Part shown: piece by piece, positions 6,381-16,641 of the stretch
How positions within the stretch are numbered: the first letter of the stretch is position 1
How the letters are laid out: every line of letters starts with the position of its first letter
The notes under the pieces: generated by a model
Database searches by the model: none
Seen by the model: the letters and a program-made list of their open reading frames with translations, nothing else
Told to the model about the DNA's origin: nothing
Program-made: the position numbers and the translations under genes
Source of the DNA: Myxococcota bacterium
GTDB lineage: Bacteria; Myxococcota_A; Polyangia; Polyangiales; Sandaracinaceae
NCBI GenBank assembly: GCA_036149055.1
Contig: JAYZQJ010000004.1
Location: 1-64,000 of the forward strand
DNA length: 64,000 nucleotides
Direction of reading: 5' to 3'

Positions 6381-7300
6381 GAGCTCGGCGGTGTCGCGCC
6401 CACGAGCGGGCGGATCGTGTCGACGAGCGTGCGCACGCAGGCGTCGATCACCATCGCGTTCGCCTCCGCGTCGTCGGGCTCCTGGGAGCGCCGGCACCCG
6501 CCGCTGCTGTCCGCCCATTCGACGCACGTCAGGCCCCCGAAGGTGTTGTACCCGCACCGGAAGCCGTCGTCCTGGCCGGCGATGCGGAGCTGGCCGTAGC
6601 TCCGGGAGTGGCGCGCGCGCTCGGGCCCGCGCGGGAAGATCACCGGCTCGGGGAAGAGGTCGCTGGCGATCGTGCGGTTCTCGCCCGACCAGACGACGTC
6701 CCCCGTCGCGGTGCGGATCAGCGCGGCGTCGACCGCGACCTGTAGCGGCTGGACGCGCGCGACCCGGCAGCCGGGCGGGCCGTTGTGGACCGCGATCGGG
6801 GCGTCCGCGTAGCCGATGCGCGAGTCGCGAACGAGCAGCGCGAGGTCGGCGTCGATCGCCGGGGCCAGCTCGGCCGCCAGATCGAGCAGGGTGAGGTCGC
6901 CGCGCTGCTGGGCCCGCGCCTCGACCCGCGCGACGACCTCCGGGTTCTGCAGCGCCGCGAGCAGCGCGCTCGAGTCGACGGGGGTGAGCCCGAGGCTCAG
7001 CAGGTGCCGCTGGAACGCGGAGTCGACCGCGTCGTACGCGGACAGGTAGGCGGTGATCTCGGCCTGCGCCGTCGGCTGGGCGTCGTTCGGCTTGGTCGGG
7101 TCGGCGGGGCCGTAGCCGAACGCCACCAGCAGGTCCGGGCTCAGCACCATCACCCGCCGGTTTCCGGCGTCGAACGCGGCCCCCGCGCTCCGCGGCGTCA
7201 TCGGCGTCGTCGGGTGCCCGATCGTCGTGATGGTGATGCCCGGCCCGCCGCAGCCGGCGGCGATCAGGGAGAGCAGGAGGACGAGGCGAAGGCGCTGCAT
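6377..7300 (-). CDS. Lipoprotein, hypothetical
   Basis: MQRLRLVLLLSLIAAGC lipobox; 'LIRTATGDVVWSG' resembles CsgG/LpoB-like folds. Confidence 0.65.
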   Translation of the reverse strand: MQRLRLVLLLSLIAAGCGGPGITITTIGHPTTPMTPRSAGAAFDAGNRRVMVLSPDLLVAFGYGPADPTKPNDAQPTAQAEITAYLSAYDAVDSAFQRHLLSLGLTPVDSSALLAALQNPEVVARVEARAQQRGDLTLLDLAAELAPAIDADLALLVRDSRIGYADAPIAVHNGPPGCRVARVQPLQVAVDAALIRTATGDVVWSGENRTIASDLFPEPVIFPRGPERARHSRSYGQLRIAGQDDGFRCGYNTFGGLTCVEWADSSGGCRRSQEPDDAEANAMVIDACVRTLVDTIRPLVGATPPSS

Positions 7301-7347
7301 GCGCCGAGGATCGACGCTCGGTCCCCGGAGGGCAAGCCTGGCCGCGC

Positions 7348-7656
7348 TCAGGCAGCGGCGGCGCGATCGGTCAGCCGGCCGGTGCGGGAGACCCAGAGAT
7401 CGAAGGCCAGCGTGCCGAGCGGCGGGAAGGCGGCGGCGAGGCCGGCGGCGGTGACGGGCAGGTTCCAGCCGAAGCGCCTCGCGGCGAGCAGGGTGATCGG
7501 CACGTAGGCGACGAACGCCGCGCCGTGCAGGGCGCCGAAGATGCGCACGCCGATCGTGTCGCCGGTGAGGACGTACTTGAAGAGCATGCCCACGAGCAGG
7601 CCCACCCAGGTGAGGGCCTCGAGGATCGCGATGGCGCGAAAAGCGACGGCGGTCAT
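7348..7656 (-). CDS. DUF3817 family membrane protein
   Basis: FR.IA.LEA.TW..LL.GM..KY, G..HG..F..Y, PP.GT. Confidence 0.8.
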   Translation of the reverse strand: MTAVAFRAIAILEALTWVGLLVGMLFKYVLTGDTIGVRIFGALHGAAFVAYVPITLLAARRFGWNLPVTAAGLAAAFPPLGTLAFDLWVSRTGRLTDRAAAA

Positions 7657-7682
7657 GGCCCGGAGGATGGGGCGGAAAGAGG

Positions 7683-7712
7683 CTGCGTCCATCCCGAAAC
7701 CAGCCCGTCTTC
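7683..7712 (+). promoter_or_regulatory. Putative ECF (SigZ-type) promoter upstream of arsM
   Basis: CTGCGTCCATCCCG-N8-CCGTCTTC, same motif and spacing as at 8568-8597. Confidence 0.65.
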
Positions 7713-7733
7713 CAGGTCAGAAGGAGGCCAGAC

Positions 7734-8537
7734 ATGGAACAGGAAGAGATCAGGAAGACGGTTCGAGACCACTACGCGGAGGTCGCTCGGACCGACGGCG
7801 CGGTCGGCTGCGCGCCGAGCTGCTGCGCCCCCGGCGCCGAGGGATCGCTGGCGCTGGGCTACTCCGAGGCGGACCTCGCGGCGGTGCCCGAGGGCGCCAA
7901 CATGGGGCTCGGCTGCGGCAACCCGCAGGCGATCGCCCGGCTCCGCGAGGGCGAGACCGTGATCGACCTCGGGAGCGGCGGCGGCTTCGACTGCTTCCTC
8001 GCCAGCCAGCAGGTGGGCGCGGAGGGGAAGGTGATCGGCGTCGACATGACGAGCGAGATGATCGAGAAGGCGCGCCGGAACGCCGAGAAGCTCGGCGCCG
8101 ACAACGTCGAGTTCCGGCTCGGCGAGATCGAGTCGCTGCCCGTCGCCGACGGAGTCGCCGACGTCATCCTCTCGAACTGCGTCATCAACCTGTCGCCGGC
8201 CAAGGAGCGGGTCTTCGCGGAGGCGTTTCGGGCGCTCGCGCCCGGCGGCCGGCTGGCCATCTCCGACGTGGTCGCGCTGAAGCCGATCCCGCCCGCGCTG
8301 ATGGAGCAGGCGATCGCGCTGAGCGGCTGTGTGTCCGGCGCGGCCCAGGCGGCGGACGTGGAGCGCATGCTGGTGGAGGCCGGCTTCGAGCAGGTGAAGG
8401 TCGAGGTCCGCCCCGAGAGCCGCGCGTTCATCGCCGGCTGGCTCCCCGGCAGCGGCGCCGAGGAGTACGTCGCGTCGGCGACCATCGAGGCGATCAAGCC
8501 GGGCGGCGCCTGCTGCCCGCCGACCTGCTGCGGGTAG
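7734..8537 (+). CDS. arsM: Arsenite S-adenosylmethionine methyltransferase
   Basis: GLGCGNP, DLGSGGGFD, GVDMT, SNCVINL, GCVSGA; N- and C-terminal vicinal Cys; RBS AAGGAGG. Confidence 0.92.
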   Translation: MEQEEIRKTVRDHYAEVARTDGAVGCAPSCCAPGAEGSLALGYSEADLAAVPEGANMGLGCGNPQAIARLREGETVIDLGSGGGFDCFLASQQVGAEGKVIGVDMTSEMIEKARRNAEKLGADNVEFRLGEIESLPVADGVADVILSNCVINLSPAKERVFAEAFRALAPGGRLAISDVVALKPIPPALMEQAIALSGCVSGAAQAADVERMLVEAGFEQVKVEVRPESRAFIAGWLPGSGAEEYVASATIEAIKPGGACCPPTCCG

Positions 8538-8567
8538 CGCGCTATCCTGGAGGAGGGCGCAGAAAGT

Positions 8568-8597
8568 CTGCGTCCATCCCGGAGATGGGCCGTCTTC
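8568..8597 (+). promoter_or_regulatory. Putative autoregulatory ECF promoter upstream of the sigZ-like gene
   Basis: Second copy of CTGCGTCCATCCCG-N8-CCGTCTTC. Confidence 0.65.
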
Positions 8598-8610
8598 TCG
8601 GTCGAGAGCC

Positions 8611-9183
8611 ATGCAGACAGGAGACACCACCCCCCACGCTCCGCCCGCCTGGGCGGAGCTCTCCACTCGCCTCCGCCCCTTCGTCCGGAGGCGGGTGGAC
8701 AGCGACGTCGACGCCGACGACGTGCTCCAGGACGTGCTGCTCAAGGCGCACCGGAGCCTCGGGGACCTGCGGGACGACGACCGCCTCGAGGCGTGGCTGT
8801 ACCGGGTGGCGCGCACGTCCATCGCCGACCACCTCCGGGCCCGGCAGCGTCACCCGCTCACCCGCCGCGAGGCGCCCGAGGCGGCGCACGAGCCGTTCGC
8901 CGAGGACGACGACGCGGTCGCGCGCGAGGTCGCGCTCTACGTGCGGCTCTTCGTGCCGCTGCTCCCGGAGCCCTACCGGGAGGCGATCGAGCTGGTGGAG
9001 CTCGAGGGGCTGACCCACCGGGAGGCGGCGGAGCGGCTGGGCATCTCGGTGTCGGGCATGAAGTCCCGCGTCCAGCGCGGCCGGGCCAAGCTCCGGCAGC
9101 TCCTCGAGGCCTGCTGCGAGATCGCCCTCGACGCCCGCGGCAAGCCGGTCTCCTGCGAGCCGCGCGGGGGCGACTGTTGCTGA
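8611..9183 (+). CDS. sigZ: ECF sigma factor, SigZ-like, with Cys-rich C-terminal tail
   Basis: DDVLQDV, AWLYRVAR, region 4 'A.RLGISVSGMKSRVQRGR', tail CC..ALDARG..SC...CC. Confidence 0.8.
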   Translation: MQTGDTTPHAPPAWAELSTRLRPFVRRRVDSDVDADDVLQDVLLKAHRSLGDLRDDDRLEAWLYRVARTSIADHLRARQRHPLTRREAPEAAHEPFAEDDDAVAREVALYVRLFVPLLPEPYREAIELVELEGLTHREAAERLGISVSGMKSRVQRGRAKLRQLLEACCEIALDARGKPVSCEPRGGDCC

Positions 9184-9186
9184 GCG

Positions 9187-9486
9187 TCAGCTGCCGTAGG
9201 CGAGCCAGGTGACGGTCACGTTCATCACCTTCATGTAGCCGTTGGTCTTCACCTCGAGCTTCATCTTGTCGTGCTCGGTCTTCACCACGCGCACGGCGAG
9301 GCGGAAGTTCTCGTCGTCCTTGCTGCGGGCCTCGAAGCCGGCGAGGGAGACGCTCGCGGTGGGCGGGACGGCGAAGGGCTCGGGGTACTTCACCACCCAG
9401 CGGTGGGTGCGCGGGCCGTGGCCCTTGTGGAGCTCCCAGTCGGAGTCGTCGTTCCCCATCTTCGCGGTGCCGGTCTGGATCTTCAT
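9187..9486 (-). CDS. Stand-alone H-type lectin domain protein
   Basis: V.Y.EPF..PP...VSL.GF, R..V.V, C-terminal V.WLAYG. Confidence 0.7.
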   Translation of the reverse strand: MKIQTGTAKMGNDDSDWELHKGHGPRTHRWVVKYPEPFAVPPTASVSLAGFEARSKDDENFRLAVRVVKTEHDKMKLEVKTNGYMKVMNVTVTWLAYGS

Positions 9487-9575
9487 GCAGCCAGCACGGT
9501 AGGCAGCGGCCGACGGCACCGTCAACGTGATTTCGAGGGCAGGACCCCGGGCGGTTCGGCGTATCCTCGCCGGCC

Positions 9576-10037
9576 ATGGGGCGGAGCGTCATCGCGGGGA
9601 GGCGGGAGCTGCCGAAGAAGCGGAACCTCAAGAAGGTGCCCTTCGTCGAGCTCGCGCCGGGCAGGCTGCAGGGCGTCGTGTCGAGCGGGTCGGACGCCAA
9701 GCGGGTGTACGTCTCGTTCGTCGACGCGGGCAGCACCGACTTCTACTGCAGCACCAACAACAACCGCCCGTGCGGTGGGCTGCGGGGCGCGCCCTGCAAG
9801 CACATCCAGGCGATGATCGACAACGCGGTCGCGCAGTATGGCGGGGCGCGGGTCGCCAAGCACCTCGGCATCGCCGAGGCCGCCGACGCCCGGGCGATCC
9901 GGAGCGGGATCCGGGGCGCCCAGAACAAGCAGCCGGCGAGCGAGGTCTTCAGCCGCTTCCTCGCCTACCTCCGCTACGTCGAGCTCGACGGGACGCGGGA
10001 GCCGATGCCCGAGCTGAGCTGGTTCGTGACCGGATGA
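9576..10037 (+). CDS. SWIM-type zinc-finger-like protein
   Basis: YC-x-NNRPC...PCKHI; first gene of a translationally coupled operon. Confidence 0.65.
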   Translation: MGRSVIAGRRELPKKRNLKKVPFVELAPGRLQGVVSSGSDAKRVYVSFVDAGSTDFYCSTNNNRPCGGLRGAPCKHIQAMIDNAVAQYGGARVAKHLGIAEAADARAIRSGIRGAQNKQPASEVFSRFLAYLRYVELDGTREPMPELSWFVTG

Positions 10038-11320
10038 GCGCGCTCGACGAGACCCTGCCCGAGGGCGTGCAGGACGCGCTCGACGCGGTGGCGGCGCTGG
10101 ACGCCGGCCTGATCGGCGGGCTGTCGCGGCTCGGCGGCCCCGCGCGGGCGCAGGTGGAGGGGCTGCCCTCGCTCTTCGCCGGGACCCCGCTCGCCCCGGC
10201 GCTCGAGCGGGCCGCCCCGGGCTTCGCCAAGGGCACGCCGACCGACGACGACGTCGCCGCGCTCGCCGCCGCCCGGGCCTCGCTCCTCGGCGCGGTGCAC
10301 GACGCGCTCGTCGCTCAGGCCTGCGCCGCGCTCGGGCTCGAGGCCCCCGCCGACCCTGTCCTCGGCGCGCCGGTCGCCCTCTCGGACGAAGACGAGGCGC
10401 CGCTCCGGAACGCGCGGCACTGGCTCCTCGAGCTCGCGAGCGCCGGCCTCTCGCAGGTGAGCCCGGACGCGGTCGCGCCCTTCGCCTCGACGCTGGAGAC
10501 CCTCGCCGAGCGCCCGGCGCTGCAGCGCGCGGCGGTGATGCTCACCGGCTTCTTCGACGAGCTGGCCGAGGCGCTGCCGCTCGCGAGCCGGGACGACGCG
10601 CCGGTGCCGCGCTGGCCGGATCTCTGGATGCAGAGCGTCATCGCCGCCGGGCCTCGCCTCGCGGTCGAGGAGGCGCCCTTCGAGGGCGCGCTGCTCCCGC
10701 TCGGGGTGGAGCTGCGCCACCACGATCACGCCATCGCGGCGGTGGTGCACGGCGCGCTGGACGGCGCGCTGGTGCGGGCGACGTTCACCGGCTGGAAGGT
10801 CGACGCGCTCCTCGGCGACGAGGCGCTCCGGGTGCTGCCCGCGCCGGCGCTCGAGGCGATGACGAGCGACGTGGCGCTCGCGGTGAAGGGCGTCCGCCGC
10901 GGCGCCGATCTCCTGGTCACCGAGGTGAAGGCGGGCGCGAAGCACGACCCCTACACGCTGGGCGCGCTGCCCTTCACCTGCGCCGCGCCCGCCGACCGGC
11001 ACCCGGTGCAGATCGCGATCCCGGTGGTCTTGCCCGAGTGCCGGGTGTCGGCGGGGCGGGTCGAGCCGCTCGGGGTGCGCCTGGCCGACGAGCGGGTGAG
11101 CCCGCTCTACGCCGCGAAGAAGGGCCAGCTCGAGGAGGCCGACGCGATGATCGGGCTCTTGCGCTGGGACGACGGCTGGGCGCTCCAGCCGCTCGACGCG
11201 AAGATCGGCAAGGACCGCTGGAGCCTCGACGCGGCGGTGACGGCGGCGAAGAAGGCGAGCAAGACCACCGACACCCTGAGCGTGCTGACCGAGCGCGCGG
11301 GCAAGCTCCTGAGGAGCTGA
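10034..11320 (+). CDS. Hypothetical protein of the MoxR/VWA operon
   Basis: ATGA overlap with the upstream gene; TGATG overlap downstream. Confidence 0.75.
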   Translation: MSALDETLPEGVQDALDAVAALDAGLIGGLSRLGGPARAQVEGLPSLFAGTPLAPALERAAPGFAKGTPTDDDVAALAAARASLLGAVHDALVAQACAALGLEAPADPVLGAPVALSDEDEAPLRNARHWLLELASAGLSQVSPDAVAPFASTLETLAERPALQRAAVMLTGFFDELAEALPLASRDDAPVPRWPDLWMQSVIAAGPRLAVEEAPFEGALLPLGVELRHHDHAIAAVVHGALDGALVRATFTGWKVDALLGDEALRVLPAPALEAMTSDVALAVKGVRRGADLLVTEVKAGAKHDPYTLGALPFTCAAPADRHPVQIAIPVVLPECRVSAGRVEPLGVRLADERVSPLYAAKKGQLEEADAMIGLLRWDDGWALQPLDAKIGKDRWSLDAAVTAAKKASKTTDTLSVLTERAGKLLRS

Positions 11321-12768
11321 TGGACGAGCGCGCCGCGAAGAACCGCCGCAGCCTGCTCCTCTGGCGCACCCTCGCCGAGGCGATGGGCAGCGAGCGCGCG
11401 CGGGAGCTCGACCCGGCGGCGACGGAGATCGTCGTGGAGGCCGGCCTGCCGCCGCTCCTGCTCGACGCGCGCCCGTCGGTCGCCCAGGTGGTGCGGCGAC
11501 ACCCCGAGCTCGCGGCGGAGCTCGAGGACGTGGTCCCGGACGCAGAGGGGCCGATCGACGCGGAGTCGCTCCGGCGCACCGCGCTCTTCTCCAAGCTGCT
11601 GCTCAACGTCTTCGCGCCGGGCGCGGGCGACGGGCAGATCGAGGCGAGCCAGTACTCGCAGTGGATCGAGGACGTCGGCGCGTTCGAGAAGGCGCTCGGC
11701 TACCCGCCCGGCGAGCTGATGGGCGGGGCCCCGGCGTCGGGGCGCTCGAGCGGCGCGCCCTCTCCCGCCGGGGTGGACACCCCCGCGTCGGGCGGCGGGC
11801 CCGAGGTGACCGACGAGGACCTGGCGCTCGCGCTGGGCGAGATCCGGCGCGGCCGCGGGCTGATGAGCGAGCCCGAGATCAAGGCGGGGCTCTCCGGCAT
11901 GGAGAAGCGCCTCGTGAACCGGATGGCGCTCCACGAGGTGCTGAAGGATCGCGCCCTCGCCGAGAAGCTCACTCCGTCGATGGCGCTCACCGAGCAGCTG
12001 CTCCGGCAGAAGGGGCGGCTCGAGGGCGAGGCGCTCCGGAACGCCAAGCGGCTGATCCGCCGCTTCGTCGATCAGCTCGCCGATCTGCTGAAGAAGGAGG
12101 TCGTCAGCGCGCCGAAGGGCAAGGTCGACACCTCCATCCCGCCCAAGCGCGTCTTCCGGAACCTGGATCTGAAGAAGACGATCCGGCGGAACCTGACGAA
12201 CTGGGACCCGGACGAGCAGCGCCTCCTCGTCGACCGGCTGTACTACCGGCGCACCGCGACGAAGAAGCAGAACACCCGGCTCATCGTGGTGGTCGACCAG
12301 TCCGGCTCGATGGTGCACGCGATGGTCAACTGCACGATCCTCGCGTCGATCTTCGCGGGCCTGCCGCGGGTCGAGGCCTACCTCTACGCCTTCGACACCG
12401 AGGTCGTCGATCTGTCGCCGTGGGTCGACGACCCGTTCGAGGCGCTGCTCCGCACCCAGCTCGGCGGGGGCAACGACGGGCCCAAGGCGATGCGCGCCGC
12501 GGCCGCCCGGATCCAGGACCCGCGCAAGACGGTGATGGTCTGGATCAGCGACTTCTACGAGTTCCAGAACGACAAGCCGCTCTTCGCGATGATCGAGGCG
12601 GTGAAGCAGTCCGGCGTCACCTTCATCCCCGTCGGCTCGGTCTCGAGCGGCGGCTACTTCAACGTCAACCCGTGGTTCCGGCAGAAGCTCAAGTCGATCG
12701 GCACCCCCGTGGTCAGCGGCAGCCTGAGGACGCTCGTGCGCGAGCTGAAGTCGGCGCTGCCCGTGTGA
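11320..12768 (+). CDS. VWA (CoxE/YehP-like) domain protein
   Basis: LDLKKTIRRNL, MIDAS DQSGS, QLGGGND, ISDFYE. Confidence 0.85.
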   Translation: MDERAAKNRRSLLLWRTLAEAMGSERARELDPAATEIVVEAGLPPLLLDARPSVAQVVRRHPELAAELEDVVPDAEGPIDAESLRRTALFSKLLLNVFAPGAGDGQIEASQYSQWIEDVGAFEKALGYPPGELMGGAPASGRSSGAPSPAGVDTPASGGGPEVTDEDLALALGEIRRGRGLMSEPEIKAGLSGMEKRLVNRMALHEVLKDRALAEKLTPSMALTEQLLRQKGRLEGEALRNAKRLIRRFVDQLADLLKKEVVSAPKGKVDTSIPPKRVFRNLDLKKTIRRNLTNWDPDEQRLLVDRLYYRRTATKKQNTRLIVVVDQSGSMVHAMVNCTILASIFAGLPRVEAYLYAFDTEVVDLSPWVDDPFEALLRTQLGGGNDGPKAMRAAAARIQDPRKTVMVWISDFYEFQNDKPLFAMIEAVKQSGVTFIPVGSVSSGGYFNVNPWFRQKLKSIGTPVVSGSLRTLVRELKSALPV

Positions 12769-12778
12769 GAGAGAGACG

Positions 12779-13903
12779 ATGGCCAAGAAAGAGAAAGCCG
12801 CCCTCCGCCTCCCCGCCGAGGCCCGCTACGCGGACGAGCTCCGCTACCTCGCCGAGGCCGACACCGGCCCGCGCCCCTTCTCCTGGCGCCTGACGCCGAA
12901 GATGGTGCGCGTGTTCGTGCTCGGGAGCCGCCCCGAGGACGGGCTCGACCGCGAGGTCCCGCAGAAGTGGTTCGGGCAGGCCTCGATCGTCGAGCGCGCG
13001 ATCGTGACCCTCGCCTCCGACCGCGGCCTGCTGCTCATCGGCGACCCGGGCACGGGCAAGAGCTGGCTCGCGGAGCTGCTCTCGGCCGCGATCTGCGGCA
13101 CCTCGACCTACGTGGTGCAGGGCACGGCCGGCACGACCGAGGACCAGATCAAGTACTCGTGGAACGTCGCGATGGTCATCGGCAAGGGGCAGACGCGGGC
13201 CGCGCTGATCCCGTCGCCGATCATGACCGCGATGGAGCTCGGCGGGCTCGGCCGCTTCGAGGAGCTGACCCGCTGCACCTCCGACGTGCAGGACGCGCTC
13301 ATCTCGATCCTCAGCGAGAAGTACGTCTCGATCCCCGAGCTCGACGAGGACAACACCGCCTTCGCGCAGCCGGGCTTCAACGTCATCGCCACCGCGAACA
13401 GCCGCGACCGGGGCGTCAACGATCTCTCGAGCGCGCTGAAGCGCCGCTTCAACTTCATCCACATCCCGGTGGTGACGAACAAGAAGCAGGAGCAGGAGAT
13501 CGTGCTCTTCCGGGTGAAGGACCTGCTGAAGCGCAACCAGTTCGAGGTCGAGGTCCCGCCGACGATGCTCGACCTCCTGCTGACGACGTTCCGCGATCTC
13601 CGCGAGGTGATGCGCGCCGCCGACACCGACGACGAGCGCATCGAGAGCGCGCTCTCCACCGCCGAGCAGATCGGCGTGCTCGAGGACGCGGTGCTGCACA
13701 GCCACTTCTTCGGCGCCGCCGAGCTGCGCCCGGACACCCTGGCCTCGTCGCTGGTCGGCACACTGATCCGGCGCCTCCCCGAGGACGTCGCGGTGATGAA
13801 CCGCTTCTGGCACTCGGTGGTCGACAAGCACGCCAAGGACGAGAAGGGCGACTGGGAGCCCTTCCTCGAGGGCGGCAAGCAGGCGATGGCCAGCCTGAAG
13901 TGA
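12779..13903 (+). CDS. MoxR-family AAA+ ATPase (YehL-like)
   Basis: Walker A GDPGTGKS, FEELTR, ATAN.RDRGVN.LSSALKRRFNF. Confidence 0.9.
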   Translation: MAKKEKAALRLPAEARYADELRYLAEADTGPRPFSWRLTPKMVRVFVLGSRPEDGLDREVPQKWFGQASIVERAIVTLASDRGLLLIGDPGTGKSWLAELLSAAICGTSTYVVQGTAGTTEDQIKYSWNVAMVIGKGQTRAALIPSPIMTAMELGGLGRFEELTRCTSDVQDALISILSEKYVSIPELDEDNTAFAQPGFNVIATANSRDRGVNDLSSALKRRFNFIHIPVVTNKKQEQEIVLFRVKDLLKRNQFEVEVPPTMLDLLLTTFRDLREVMRAADTDDERIESALSTAEQIGVLEDAVLHSHFFGAAELRPDTLASSLVGTLIRRLPEDVAVMNRFWHSVVDKHAKDEKGDWEPFLEGGKQAMASLK

Positions 13904-16641
13904 GCGGGCGCCTCGAGACGCTGCGCGAGCAGCTGCTGGCCGCGGCGGCGGCGATGAGCGACGAGCCGCTCGAGGGGCTGCTCTCGGGCATGGCCGACGA
14001 CGTGGCGCGCGCGAGCGCGGAGCGGCTGGAGATCTTCCCGGTGGCCCACCACAGCCCGGCGAGCGCCGTGCACCTCGTGCGGCGGCTCCGGGAGAGGGCG
14101 CCGCGCGTGATCTTCCTCGAGCTCTGCGAGGACCTCGACGCGAAGCTCGACGAGCTCGGCGACTGCAAGCTCCCGGTGGCGCTGCAGGCGTTCGCGCACG
14201 AGACCGACGGCTTCCCGCCCGAGCGCGCGCCGCTGAGCGTGGTGGCGCCCCTGACCGAGCACAGCGCGGAGCTGCAGGCGATCGCGTTCGCGCAGACCCA
14301 CCCGGAGACCGAGATCGTCTTCGTGGACCGCTCGGTCGACCACGTCTTCCAGTGGGAGCGCGACCCGGAGCCGGACGAGGACGTCGAGGAGGAGGACGAG
14401 AGCGCGCGCCTCCACGGCGGCGCGATCGGGGTCGAGGTCGGTCAGCTGATCCCGAGCTTCGCCGCGTTCCGCGAGACGATCTGCGCCCACGCGAAGGTCG
14501 CCCACTGGGCCGAGTGGTGGTCGCTCTACGTCGAGCAGGCCACGCTCGACGCCGACTACCAGACCTACCGCGAGGTCTACTTCCTCATCGGCAGCCTGAT
14601 CCGCCGGCTCGGGGTGCGGCGCGAGCTGCTGGAGATGGACCGCGATCGCGAGCGCTTCATGTGGACCCGCATGAAGGACTGGCTCGAGGCGCACGACGTT
14701 GCGCCCGAAGACGCCTTGCACATCTGCGGCGCGGCGCACGCGGCGAGCGACGTCGAGGAGTTCGGTGTGGACAGCCCGGCGCGCTGGGACCTGCCGCCGC
14801 GCACCGCGACGAAGTGGCTCTACGGCTTCATCCCCTCGAGCCATCACGCCATCGAGCATCAGTTCGGCCACCCGGTCGGCACGATCACCCTGGCGGCGGA
14901 GACCTGGCGCAAGGCGACGAAGGGGCTCTCGCTGACCCCCTTCGCGCTGCCCAGGCCGGGCAAGCCGAAGAAGCCCAGGAAGGCGAAGAAGCCCAAGGCT
15001 CCCGTGGCGATCGAGGGCGGGGTGCTCGGGCTGATGCAGCGGCCGCCCGCGCTCGCCCAGGAGGACCACCAGGAGCTCTTGCGGTGGTGCACGGGCATCG
15101 TCGCGCTCGCCCGGAAGAACGGTTACCTCGCGACCACCGCCGACTCGATCGCGATCTACGAGACCGTCATCCTGCTCGCCCGGCTGCGGGCCCGACGCCA
15201 CCCGAGCGCCTACGACTTCATCGACGCGGCGGTGACCTGCCTCGAGAAGGTGGAGGTCCCCGGCAAGCGCGACGTGCGCCGGCTCTGCGAGATCCTGCTC
15301 GGCGGCGACCGGGTCGGGCAGGTCGGCTACAGCTCGCTGCCGCCGCTGGTGCAGGACGTCTACGACCGGCTCGCCTCGACCGGGGTGGCGCCGGGCAAGT
15401 CGACGGTGACGCGCTGGCTGGTCGACTTCGGCAAGGACCCGGGCAAGCGCGGCTGCTCGGATCTGCTCTGGCGGCTGAGCTGGCTGCTGCCCGGGACGCG
15501 GGTGGCGCGGCCGATCATGGGGCAGCGCGCGCTCGGCGAGCGGTCGCCGCAGGAGAGCTGGGACATCAAGCTCGGGGGCACCGAGCAGCGCCACCTCATC
15601 GAGCTCGCCTACGAGGGCGTGACGGTGGAGCACGTGCTCGAGCGGCGCCTGCGCGAGCACGCCTTCGGGCCCGGGTCGACGACGCTGACCGCGCTCGAGG
15701 CGGCCGAGCGCAGCCTCGCGCTCCTCCACTCGCCGCGGCTGACCGAGGACCTCGGCGAGCGCGCGGTGCACCTCCTGATGGGGGAGCGCGGCGCGGCGGA
15801 CGCGCGGCCGATCTTCGAGCAGGCGCGGCGGCTCGTGCACTTCTACCGCGGCACCCCGAAGGGCCTCGCCGGCTGGCTCGAGCGCTTCGTCACCAGCGGC
15901 TACTCGCACTACGCCAGCCAGCTCCCGGACGCGTTCGCCGACCGCGGCACCAGCCCCGAGCAGCTCGCCGCGATGCTCGCCTTCGTGTTCACGCTCGAGA
16001 GCCTGGCGCTCTCGCTCGGTTGCGACCGGAGCGAGCTGATCATCGCGCTCGAGCAGGCGGAGACCGACGACCCGAACAAGCTCGGGCTGCTCTGGGTGGC
16101 GAGGTGGCTGCTCGATCTCGAGACCGAAGGGGAGCTCCGCGAGCGGCTCGCGCGGGTGCTCGAGAGCCCCCTCCTCCGGCGCGCCTTCCCGGCCTACCTA
16201 GGCGGCCTGCTGCGCGCGCTCGAGCTGTCGCCGCGGGTGAGCGCGATCGCGACCGAGCTGCTGACCCGGGCCTTCGCCGAGCTGCCCGACGCGGTGCTCT
16301 TGCCCTGGCTGCCCGGCCTCTTCCAGACCCTGCAGCCGCTGGCTCGCGACGTCCTGCCCGCGCTCCTCGACGAGCTCACCCGGGTCATGCCGACCCGGCT
16401 CGACGCCCTCGACGCCTGGGCGCCGACCGAGGAGCCGCCGACCGCGCCGTCCGCGCCGATCGCCTCGGCCCCCACCGGCGCCGGCGCGCTCCTCTTCCGC
16501 CACCGCGCGTCGACCTCGGCCCACGCCGCCCGCCTCGGGAGCGCCGCCTCCTGGGACGCGCCCGCCGCGCCCTCGGTGGGGGAGAGCCTCGTGCGCCGCT
16601 ACCCCGCGTCCGTGTCCGCGCACGCCCGCCGGCTCGATTGA
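13900..16641 (+). CDS. DUF5682 / YehM-like protein
   Basis: FPVAHHSPASA, RERFM, ICGAAH; GTGA overlap with the ATPase. Confidence 0.8.
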   Translation: MSGRLETLREQLLAAAAAMSDEPLEGLLSGMADDVARASAERLEIFPVAHHSPASAVHLVRRLRERAPRVIFLELCEDLDAKLDELGDCKLPVALQAFAHETDGFPPERAPLSVVAPLTEHSAELQAIAFAQTHPETEIVFVDRSVDHVFQWERDPEPDEDVEEEDESARLHGGAIGVEVGQLIPSFAAFRETICAHAKVAHWAEWWSLYVEQATLDADYQTYREVYFLIGSLIRRLGVRRELLEMDRDRERFMWTRMKDWLEAHDVAPEDALHICGAAHAASDVEEFGVDSPARWDLPPRTATKWLYGFIPSSHHAIEHQFGHPVGTITLAAETWRKATKGLSLTPFALPRPGKPKKPRKAKKPKAPVAIEGGVLGLMQRPPALAQEDHQELLRWCTGIVALARKNGYLATTADSIAIYETVILLARLRARRHPSAYDFIDAAVTCLEKVEVPGKRDVRRLCEILLGGDRVGQVGYSSLPPLVQDVYDRLASTGVAPGKSTVTRWLVDFGKDPGKRGCSDLLWRLSWLLPGTRVARPIMGQRALGERSPQESWDIKLGGTEQRHLIELAYEGVTVEHVLERRLREHAFGPGSTTLTALEAAERSLALLHSPRLTEDLGERAVHLLMGERGAADARPIFEQARRLVHFYRGTPKGLAGWLERFVTSGYSHYASQLPDAFADRGTSPEQLAAMLAFVFTLESLALSLGCDRSELIIALEQAETDDPNKLGLLWVARWLLDLETEGELRERLARVLESPLLRRAFPAYLGGLLRALELSPRVSAIATELLTRAFAELPDAVLLPWLPGLFQTLQPLARDVLPALLDELTRVMPTRLDALDAWAPTEEPPTAPSAPIASAPTGAGALLFRHRASTSAHAARLGSAASWDAPAAPSVGESLVRRYPASVSAHARRLD

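Follow-up and report, generated by a model that had tools for sequence, protein, structure and literature searches.

The 64,000-nt stretch analysed here, which we refer to as the window, comprises positions 1 to 64,000 of contig JAYZQJ010000004.1 (assembly GCA_036149055.1) from a Myxococcota bacterium of the Sandaracinaceae, and it contains a co-directional pair of genes: arsM, encoding an As(III) S-adenosylmethionine (SAM) methyltransferase, and a gene for a SigZ-like extracytoplasmic function (ECF) sigma factor that ends in a Cys-rich tail. The pair, separated by a 73-nt spacer, is flanked by a divergent DUF3817 open reading frame (ORF) and a convergent H-type-lectin ORF, the G+C content of the window being 70-78%. 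The cassette is real, as are its conservation and its promoter, and within the reach of our searches none of these had been described. The features of the locus are as follows.

7734-8537, forward strand: arsM, As(III) S-adenosylmethionine methyltransferase, 267 aa (NF008823, Methyltransf_31 and alignment to 5evj)
8611-9183, forward strand: SigZ-like ECF sigma factor, 190 aa (Sigma70_r2 and r4_2, SigZ models)
9106-9180, forward strand: Cys-rich C-terminal tail of the sigma factor, residues 166-190, directly after the last sigma-4 helix
7684-7711, forward strand: promoter-like motif before arsM, with a -35-like TGCGTCC (7684-7690), a 15-nt spacer and a -10-like CGTCTT (7706-7711)
8569-8596, forward strand: second copy of the motif, in the 73-nt spacer before the sigma gene, with TGCGTCC (8569-8575) and CGTCTT (8591-8596)
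7348-7692, reverse strand: DUF3817 membrane-protein ORF, divergent, on the arsM side (Pfam)
9187-9525, reverse strand: H-type-lectin ORF, convergent, the next gene 3' of the sigma gene (Pfam)

A sequence-only reading of this DNA had described arsM followed by a SigZ-like sigma gene with a Cys-rich end, and the ORFs lie as it described them. The ArsM of the window bears every hallmark of its family and is predicted to methylate arsenite. It scores 341 bits on the NCBIfam model NF008823 'arsenite methyltransferase' (cut-off 263) and is the sole match above that cut-off in the whole genome (9.9 Mb in 289 contigs, 96% complete), which holds one ArsM and one SigZ-like gene. The Rossmann SAM-binding domain covers residues 71-217 (Methyltransf_31, 131.6 bits in Pfam), and Cys residues of the catalytic type are found at C30/C31, C61, C149 and C199. 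Solved ArsMs have four conserved As(III)-binding cysteines; one such structure, 5evj, aligns with the window protein over the GCGNP (C61), SNCVINLSP (C149) and GxC (C199) motifs, the N-terminal C30/C31 being equated with the solved proteins by position only. C31, C61, C149 and C199 are invariant among 46 sigma-linked orthologs. The protein ends in a tail of its own, CCPPTCC (C260, C261, C265 and C266), the CCxPxCC form of which is kept in at least 90% of the same 46 orthologs; of 13 unlinked orthologs whose C-terminus is complete, 5 have a CC tail as well, so that it is not specific to sigma-linked genes. As a separate observation, the arsM matches of genomes G003, G064, G155, G030 and G163 are orthologs with a single in-frame TGA, possibly selenocysteine forms, and NCBIfam contains ArsM selenoprotein models.

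The sigma factor consists of Sigma70_r2 (PF04542) and r4_2 (PF08281) domains and belongs to the ECF (group 4) sigma-70 factors, with 88.6 bits on TIGR02937 (cut-off 42.9). The NCBIfam models that match it best are both SigZ, and because it stays under the cut-off of each (164.3 bits on TIGR02959, cut-off 168.65; 174.7 bits on NF007215, cut-off 212) we call it SigZ-like and not a SigZ equivalog; it is the only such gene in the genome, at 163.9 bits compared with 80.8 for the next ECF. The AlphaFold2 model (mean pLDDT 87, pTM 0.48) has ECF sigmas as its nearest solved folds in Foldseek. The tail, which brings the protein to its end at ...EACCEIALDARGKPVSCEPRGGDCC, holds all five Cys residues of the sigma factor within the last 23 residues (C168, C169, C182, C189 and C190; pattern CC-x12-C-x6-CC), and it is modelled as a β-hairpin (strands 169-173 and 179-184) continuing the last sigma-4 helix. 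Foldseek and PDB sequence searches matched the ECF core only, with no solved chain spanning the tail. That the Cys tail is a conserved feature of the family is borne out by two alignments. In the first, of 50 sigma homologs, C169 is present throughout, with C168, C182 and C190 each kept in at least 90%; in the second, of 46 arsM-linked orthologs, both C168 and C169 are invariant, C190 is kept in at least 90% and the middle C182 varies. A short (~20 aa) Cys-rich C-terminal extension and the lack of an anti-sigma gene in the neighbourhood are the features of group ECF238 in the classification of Casas-Pastor 2021, and since the SigZ models match best and SigZ is ECF238s9, the sigma factor is placed, by this model match, in the SigZ/ECF24 part of ECF238. 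It is not a CorE-type sigma, the kind with which the sequence-only reading had compared it: there is no Cys outside the tail, no conserved linker Cys appears in either the 50 or the 46 homologs, and the linker CxC motif of CorE-type sigmas is absent.

The pairing of the two genes is strongly conserved, far beyond chance. Both proteins served as queries against 201 genomes of the window's class, and the coordinates of the matches were compared; the count took in all 54 sigma rows, together with the arsM rows at E ≤ 8.6e-69 and three more on sigma contigs, and a check by eye found no arsM row outside the count on the same contig as a sigma row. A sigma match at E ≤ 1e-20 was present in 51 other genomes, 28 of which have arsM directly upstream and co-directional; at the stricter threshold of E ≤ 1e-45 this arrangement was found in 25 of 28 genomes. 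Conversely, the sigma gene lies behind arsM in 26 of the 39 class genomes with an arsM match at E ≤ 1e-85, and tblastn on the fetched class loci placed arsM upstream of the sigma gene in 26 of 29. A metagenome scan was queried with the alignment of the 50 sigma homologs, and among the best 80 of 539 relatives arsM was upstream in 71, the contig was too short upstream in 7 and arsM was lacking in 2, that is, 71 of 73 evaluable contigs carry the pair. The linkage survey that the sequence-only reading had called for therefore came out in its favour. In most cassettes the start of the sigma gene overlaps or abuts the arsM stop codon. Beyond the phylum, 12 of 401 sampled Pseudomonadota genomes had a SigZ-like gene at E ≤ 1e-28, the three best being arsM-linked, and 301 Acidobacteriota genomes yielded 13 SigZ-like loci in 12 genomes, 3 of them arsM-linked; two loci outside the phylum, L143 and L162, have the gene order inverted, with the motif still before arsM and a separate arsM promoter. 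The nearest homolog of named origin comes from Minicystis rosea. A contig search with the sigma protein alone returned six distant ECFs, none with arsM (its patterns were too specific, and its result did not enter the counts), and a plasmid search with the sigma protein gave no match at E ≤ 1e-20.

Upstream of arsM the cassettes share TGCGTCC (usually followed by TTT), exactly 15 nt, CGTCT, a Shine-Dalgarno sequence and the start codon, the region being otherwise unconserved. ECF-dependent promoters typically consist of two short blocks at a fixed spacing, with CGTC in the -10 block and a short leader, and the motif matches this layout. In the window, the arsM copy is followed by GAAGGAGG at 7720-7727 and by the ATG at 7734, and the ATG of the sigma gene stands 14 nt after the -10-like element of the second copy. 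By pattern search, 26 of 27 loci have the motif upstream of arsM; the remaining locus is cut by the contig end, and one locus has a 14-nt spacing. The distance from motif to start codon is 13-48 nt in most cases. The exact pattern GCGTCC-N15-CGTCTT occurs three times in the 9.9-Mb genome, and two of these occurrences are the window sites. For the window, the expected number of matches was 0.12, and 1 of 100 shuffles gave two. We then built a weight matrix from 24 foreign arsM sites with canonical spacing (28.2 bits of information) and scanned both strands of the window's own genome, where the arsM site ranked first (25.1 bits) and the sigma-gene site third (22.6 bits). The arsM 5' region is complete in 49 of the metagenome loci (from the best 80 of 539); 48 of these reached at least 20 bits, and the 49th has a 14-nt spacing. 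The second copy before the sigma gene was found in 0 of the 71 metagenome cassettes and is thus peculiar to this genome; the two window copies align with each other, flanking bases included, and the 73-nt spacer and the promoter copy in it have the look of a local duplication.

The other high matrix scorers of the genome belong to a dispersed repeat, CTTTGCGTCTTTGCGTGAAATTAGTTGTC, which scores 15-25 bits with the promoter matrix and occurs on contigs C205, C248, C172, C198, C262, C202, C90, C143, C147, C22 and C100; it looks like a repeat family rather than a set of regulon promoters. The same genome (G000) also has tandem units of ~107 nt, together with dispersed copies, that contain GCGTCCATCCCG...CCCGTCCC (C128:160882-161220, C15:97-3114 and C143:46276-46494). 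These units carry the extended -35 word of the window promoters, with A instead of T before GCGTCC.

Our main argument concerning the reader of the motif comes from arsM genes that have no sigma gene beside them. A motif used by ArsR or some other factor would be expected to accompany arsM; this one goes with the sigma gene instead. The 300 nt upstream of 14 class arsM orthologs (E ≤ 1e-85) without an adjacent sigma gene were scanned with the matrix, and in 13 of the 14 no motif was found there (best score 3.1 bits). A sigma match at E ≤ 1e-20 is lacking from 12 of these 13 genomes; in the remaining one (G101) there is only a weaker paralog, located elsewhere. The sole unlinked arsM with the motif, in G143 (31.4 bits, 28 nt before the start), comes from a genome that carries the sigma gene on another contig, preceded by its own 41-bit motif. 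The motif also stands beside SigZ-like genes with neighbours other than arsM, in all three phyla. Because the motif goes with the sigma gene and not with arsM, it is very probably read by this sigma factor, and since the promoter before arsM also feeds the sigma gene, the cassette would be autoregulated. The suggestion that the sigma factor drives arsM is thus well supported, by a conserved ECF-type promoter before arsM that co-occurs with the sigma gene and not with arsM itself.

No other regulator was detected near the pair. All seven PF01022 (HTH_5) matches of the 9.9-Mb genome are on contigs other than that of the window (C4), and ten flanking ORFs scanned with Pfam have no regulator domain, in agreement with the earlier statement that no arsR is nearby; the two ArsR neighbourhoods of this genome on C268 and C29 hold AHSA1, a pyridoxal-phosphate enzyme or a weak low-molecular-weight (LMW) phosphatase, and no ars operon. 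Nor is an anti-sigma gene present, again as had been stated: the genome has eight zf-HC2 matches, none on the window contig, and since five of the eight adjoin other ECF genes, anti-sigmas of this type are detectable in the genome and are missing here. In the called ORFs of 20 related loci no zf-HC2 was found except one within a protein kinase. The genome is also without an Acr3 match, having only a weak ArsB-superfamily match and two ArsC/Spx-family matches. Among relatives, tblastn with five ArsR queries found no ArsR within 1.5 kb in any of 30 loci.

The wider context was surveyed by Pfam on 148 ORFs from 20 cassettes, ~3.5 kb on each side, with ORFs picked by codon-position G+C, a procedure that missed some genes. 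Further ars-type genes were present in 9 of the 20 cassettes and comprise ArsR, ArsD, ArsA, LMW-phosphatase ArsC, Acr3-type SBF, MIP, GAPDH and ArsI; the ArsC is sometimes fused to GNAT, and two more loci hold GNAT only. For the partners of the wider sigma family we took 147 sigma ORFs from all loci and applied a tblastn criterion, with partial hits and ORFs above 260 aa dropped. The partner is arsM in 96, ArsI/CadI in 17 and another gene in 26, eight being undeterminable; all six glyoxalase-type neighbours tested scored above the cut-off of the ArsI/CadI equivalog NF041414. The weaker sigma matches of the window's class are paralogs. Other neighbours preceded by the motif are Cys-pair-rich ORFs of 54-70 aa, a glutathione S-transferase (GST) ending in GGGCCG, DF-family/DUF2703 proteins and small ArsR-like genes, and many of these targets have vicinal Cys pairs, as does the ArsM tail CCxPxCC. 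In a sigma tree of 142 rows built by a quick method the partner labels are clustered, with 17 changes for arsM compared with a shuffled mean of 40.4 and 5 for arsI compared with 16.3, 0 of 500 shuffles being as low for either label. We draw no order of events from this tree, because the arsenic partners are not single clades and 55 of its 139 inner branches are unsupported.

Two groups of neighbours deserve mention in their own right. The ORFs at L144:2139-2303 (reverse strand), L153:2060-2233 (reverse strand) and L156:2212-2424 (forward strand) encode metallothionein-like peptides of 54-70 aa with many Cys pairs; they lie directly behind the motif, beside SigZ-like sigmas of two other phyla, and gave no family match. 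At L167:3064-3624 (reverse strand), an ArsI/CadI-family protein paired with a SigZ-like sigma ends in CCAPTCC, the tail type of the linked ArsMs.

That the two genes are transcribed in nature is only hinted at. Near-identical DNA is present in marine metagenome runs, and arsM, the spacer and the sigma gene are all represented, at 99% identity or better, among contigs from the RNA libraries of two studies, one contig bridging 8227-8708. Such contigs cannot show strand, ends or level, and since DNA carry-over is possible we treat them as weak evidence of transcription. The RNA-library contigs of one study show strain variants at the expected start site of the second promoter, namely T>A at 8602 and the loss of 1 nt at 8604. 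Contig ends at 8601/8602 in two runs of one sample were considered as a transcript end or start and are not read as such, variants at 8602-8604 being present in other runs.

Taken as a whole, these findings are best read as a self-contained, positively autoregulated arsM-sigma cassette in which the Cys tail acts as an arsenical switch, an interpretation that we hold to be somewhat better than even. According to this proposal, the SigZ-like sigma would direct RNA polymerase to its own promoter type, TGCGTCC-N15-CGTCT(T), copies of which precede arsM and, in this genome, also the sigma gene, and because both genes lie behind this promoter type the active sigma would raise both ArsM and itself. 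In place of an anti-sigma, the proposed switch would be the Cys tail on the end of the sigma-4 helix that reads the -35 element. As known from ArsR proteins, As(III) is classically bound by a vicinal Cys pair with a third thiol, and methylarsenite (MAs(III)) is favoured where the vicinal pair stands alone. As(III), or the ArsM product MAs(III), may thus bind the C168/C169 pair together with the terminal C189/C190 (and C182 in this protein), and the resulting change in the tail would allow promoter use; as ArsM methylates the arsenic, the signal would decay. The parts of this proposal are not equally firm: the tail is probably the sensor, and for the ligand, which is deduced from gene context alone, a trivalent arsenical is about evenly balanced with another soft metal or thiol stress.

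Several observations weigh against the arsenical-switch cassette. In the window, the second promoter leaves a leader of only ~7 nt before the sigma ATG, with no clear ribosome-binding site. C182 is not conserved among the arsM-linked orthologs, which makes the ligand set uncertain, and the CC+CC set could equally bind zinc in a structural role. CorE and CorE2 depend on a CxC motif in their linker that this sigma factor lacks, so their mechanism is not simply transferable. For ECF238 as a whole, promoter motifs are described in the publication as not conserved and the group as not autoregulated. Further, paralogs beside ArsI/CadI, GSTs, DF-family/DUF2703 thioredoxin-like proteins and Cys-rich metallothionein-like peptides share both tail and motif, for which reason the sigma factor could respond more broadly to thiol-reactive metal(loid)s. 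Finally, ArsR is encoded within ~3.5 kb in 5 of the 20 surveyed cassettes, and in locus L046 the genes form the co-directional row arsR-arsD-arsA-arsC-arsM-sigma; since ArsR shares the island in several relatives, the sigma factor could there be a mere amplifier under ArsR control. The earlier description of the system as ArsR-independent consequently holds for the window, whose contig has no ArsR, but not for the cassette everywhere.

The most serious alternative, to which we give a clearly smaller though appreciable probability, accepts the cassette and its promoter and lets the tail sense a signal other than arsenic, either Cd, Zn or Cu or thiol-oxidative/electrophile stress, with arsM as one of several thiol-chemistry genes recruited to a generic soft-metal or thiol-stress sigma family. 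The same-tail, same-motif paralogs with non-arsM partners would be expected from it, a multicopper oxidase lies next to one cassette (L042), and characterised ECF238 members respond to Cu, Cd and Zn in the available portions of PMC8999054 and PMC7826278. Against this stand the dominant partners, ArsM in 96 and ArsI/CadI in 17 of the 147 pairs, which are families named for arsenic and cadmium resistance, the 9 of 20 cassettes that are situated inside arsenic gene clusters, and the complete set of hallmarks in the window ArsM. A different possibility is that the tail is merely structural, for instance binding zinc, and the sigma constitutive, with control exerted upstream by ArsR, another regulator or read-through and the sigma amplifying arsM by feedback. 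Four or five Cys arranged as CC...CC on a modelled β-hairpin could be a zinc site, and the ArsR genes within ~3.5 kb of some cassettes, L046 in particular, could provide such control. We nevertheless regard this as improbable, given that neither ArsR nor another regulator is encoded on the window contig, that tblastn detected ArsR within 1.5 kb in none of the 30 loci, that an unregulated sigma on its own promoter would run away, and that the cassette retains its own promoter even inside ars islands.

ArsM could itself be the sensor partner, an enzyme-type anti-sigma that holds or releases the sigma factor according to arsenic load. This would explain both the tight translational coupling implied by the overlapping stop and start codons of most cassettes and the similar Cys-pair tails of the two proteins, the ArsM tail being kept in at least 90% of the 46 linked orthologs, and it would fill the place of an anti-sigma where no other is present. 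It is hard to reconcile, however, with the inverted order and separate arsM promoter of L143 and L162, with arsM and the sigma gene on different contigs in G143, with paralogous sigmas that pair with unrelated proteins, or with the 73-nt spacer and separate promoters of the window, and we consider it very unlikely. Even less credit, close to none, is due to the idea that unrelated genes became neighbours by chance and that the repeated motif is a functionless local duplication. The flanking bases shared by the two window copies are what a duplication would leave, but chance adjacency is contradicted by the three phyla and 71 metagenome contigs in which adjacency and motif are conserved, and the motif is absent from the arsM genes of genomes without the sigma.

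Returning to the arsenical-switch cassette, its parts can be compared with known systems. The Myxococcus xanthus sigmas CorE and CorE2, from the ECF44 clade of ECF238, likewise have no anti-sigma and a short C-terminal Cys-rich extension, and it is proposed or shown in PMC8999054 and PMC7826278 that metal binding by this extension switches them. Unlike them, the window sigma lacks the CxC in the segment that links sigma-2 to sigma-4, described there as essential in both, and has its CC-x12-C-x6-CC tail on a modelled hairpin; its promoter is conserved and duplicated, and its partner is arsM and not a copper or cadmium efflux gene. Bacillus subtilis SigZ (ECF24, ECF238s9) shares the best-matching models and the lack of an anti-sigma, and Cys in its C-terminus is noted in the part of PMC7826278 available. 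The window sigma differs in falling just under both SigZ cut-offs and in having a cognate promoter and target genes that can be named, whereas for SigZ the available part of the ECF classification supplement gives no signal, regulon or autoregulation. The ECF41/SigJ factors are also one-component sigmas modulated by their own C-terminal extension, according to the accessible portion of PMC8999054, but those extensions are SnoaL-like and ~100 aa long, in contrast to the ~23 aa, Cys-based one here. With ArsR/SmtB repressors, whose arsenic sites include the three-sulfur (S3) type, the cassette shares a presumed logic in which a Cys cluster with a vicinal pair binds trivalent arsenic and alters the transcription of arsenic genes; it differs in the proposed activation by a sigma subunit instead of winged-helix de-repression, in having no ArsR fold and none encoded on the window contig, and in lacking the ArsR in or beside the operon that defines an ArsR-controlled ars operon.

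In the literature we found no link between arsM and an ECF sigma factor, most subscription journals lying outside the search. The available parts of PMC9045368 and PMC8871858 contain no such link, PMC9045368 noting in passing that arsM expression in Cupriavidus is not RpoD-dependent, and the published ECF classification, in its accessible part, gives ECF238 neither a conserved context, except in one subgroup, nor a conserved promoter. What is new here, then, are the dedicated arsenic partners and the cognate promoter; a Cys-tailed ECF238 sigma without an anti-sigma is of a known kind.

To our knowledge, arsenic-responsive transcription in bacteria has been attributed to ArsR-type repressors, and a dedicated arsM sigma, if confirmed, would be a second, activating route of arsenic gene control. 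It could explain how arsenic methylation, which matters for arsenic volatilisation and toxicity in soils and seawater, is controlled in organisms that, like the present one, lack both a recognisable Acr3 gene and an ArsR next to arsM. With a promoter and targets now named, the ECF238 group as a whole, SigZ included, becomes open to experiment. The cassette is also small, with one promoter and two genes, and could find use as a biosensor part or as a switch for arsenic-inducible expression. More tentatively, and with somewhat less than even confidence, we suggest that SigZ-type (ECF24/ECF238) sigmas are phylum-spanning one-component sensors of trivalent arsenicals that use one promoter, TGCGTCC-N15-CGTCT, and have ArsM, ArsI/CadI and Cys-rich arsenic-binding peptides as targets. 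Arsenic regulators would then include a class of sigma factors for the first time, and B. subtilis SigZ, long an orphan, would acquire a testable signal.

Some minor observations concern the surroundings of the cassette. Neither Rfam matches within 7000-9800 nor sigma-70-type promoter or intrinsic terminator patterns within 7200-9700 were found. Downstream, positions 9576-16641 hold a co-directional cluster of a 153-aa ORF without a Pfam family match, a VWA-like ORF, a MoxR-type AAA ORF and a 1224-aa ORF, the names other than that of the 153-aa ORF being read from the translations. The annotated ATG of the divergent DUF3817 ORF (7692, reverse strand) falls inside the arsM promoter motif; an alternative in-frame Met 12 codons inward (start at 7656) would leave an intergenic region of 77 nt, and the Pfam match begins at residue 17.

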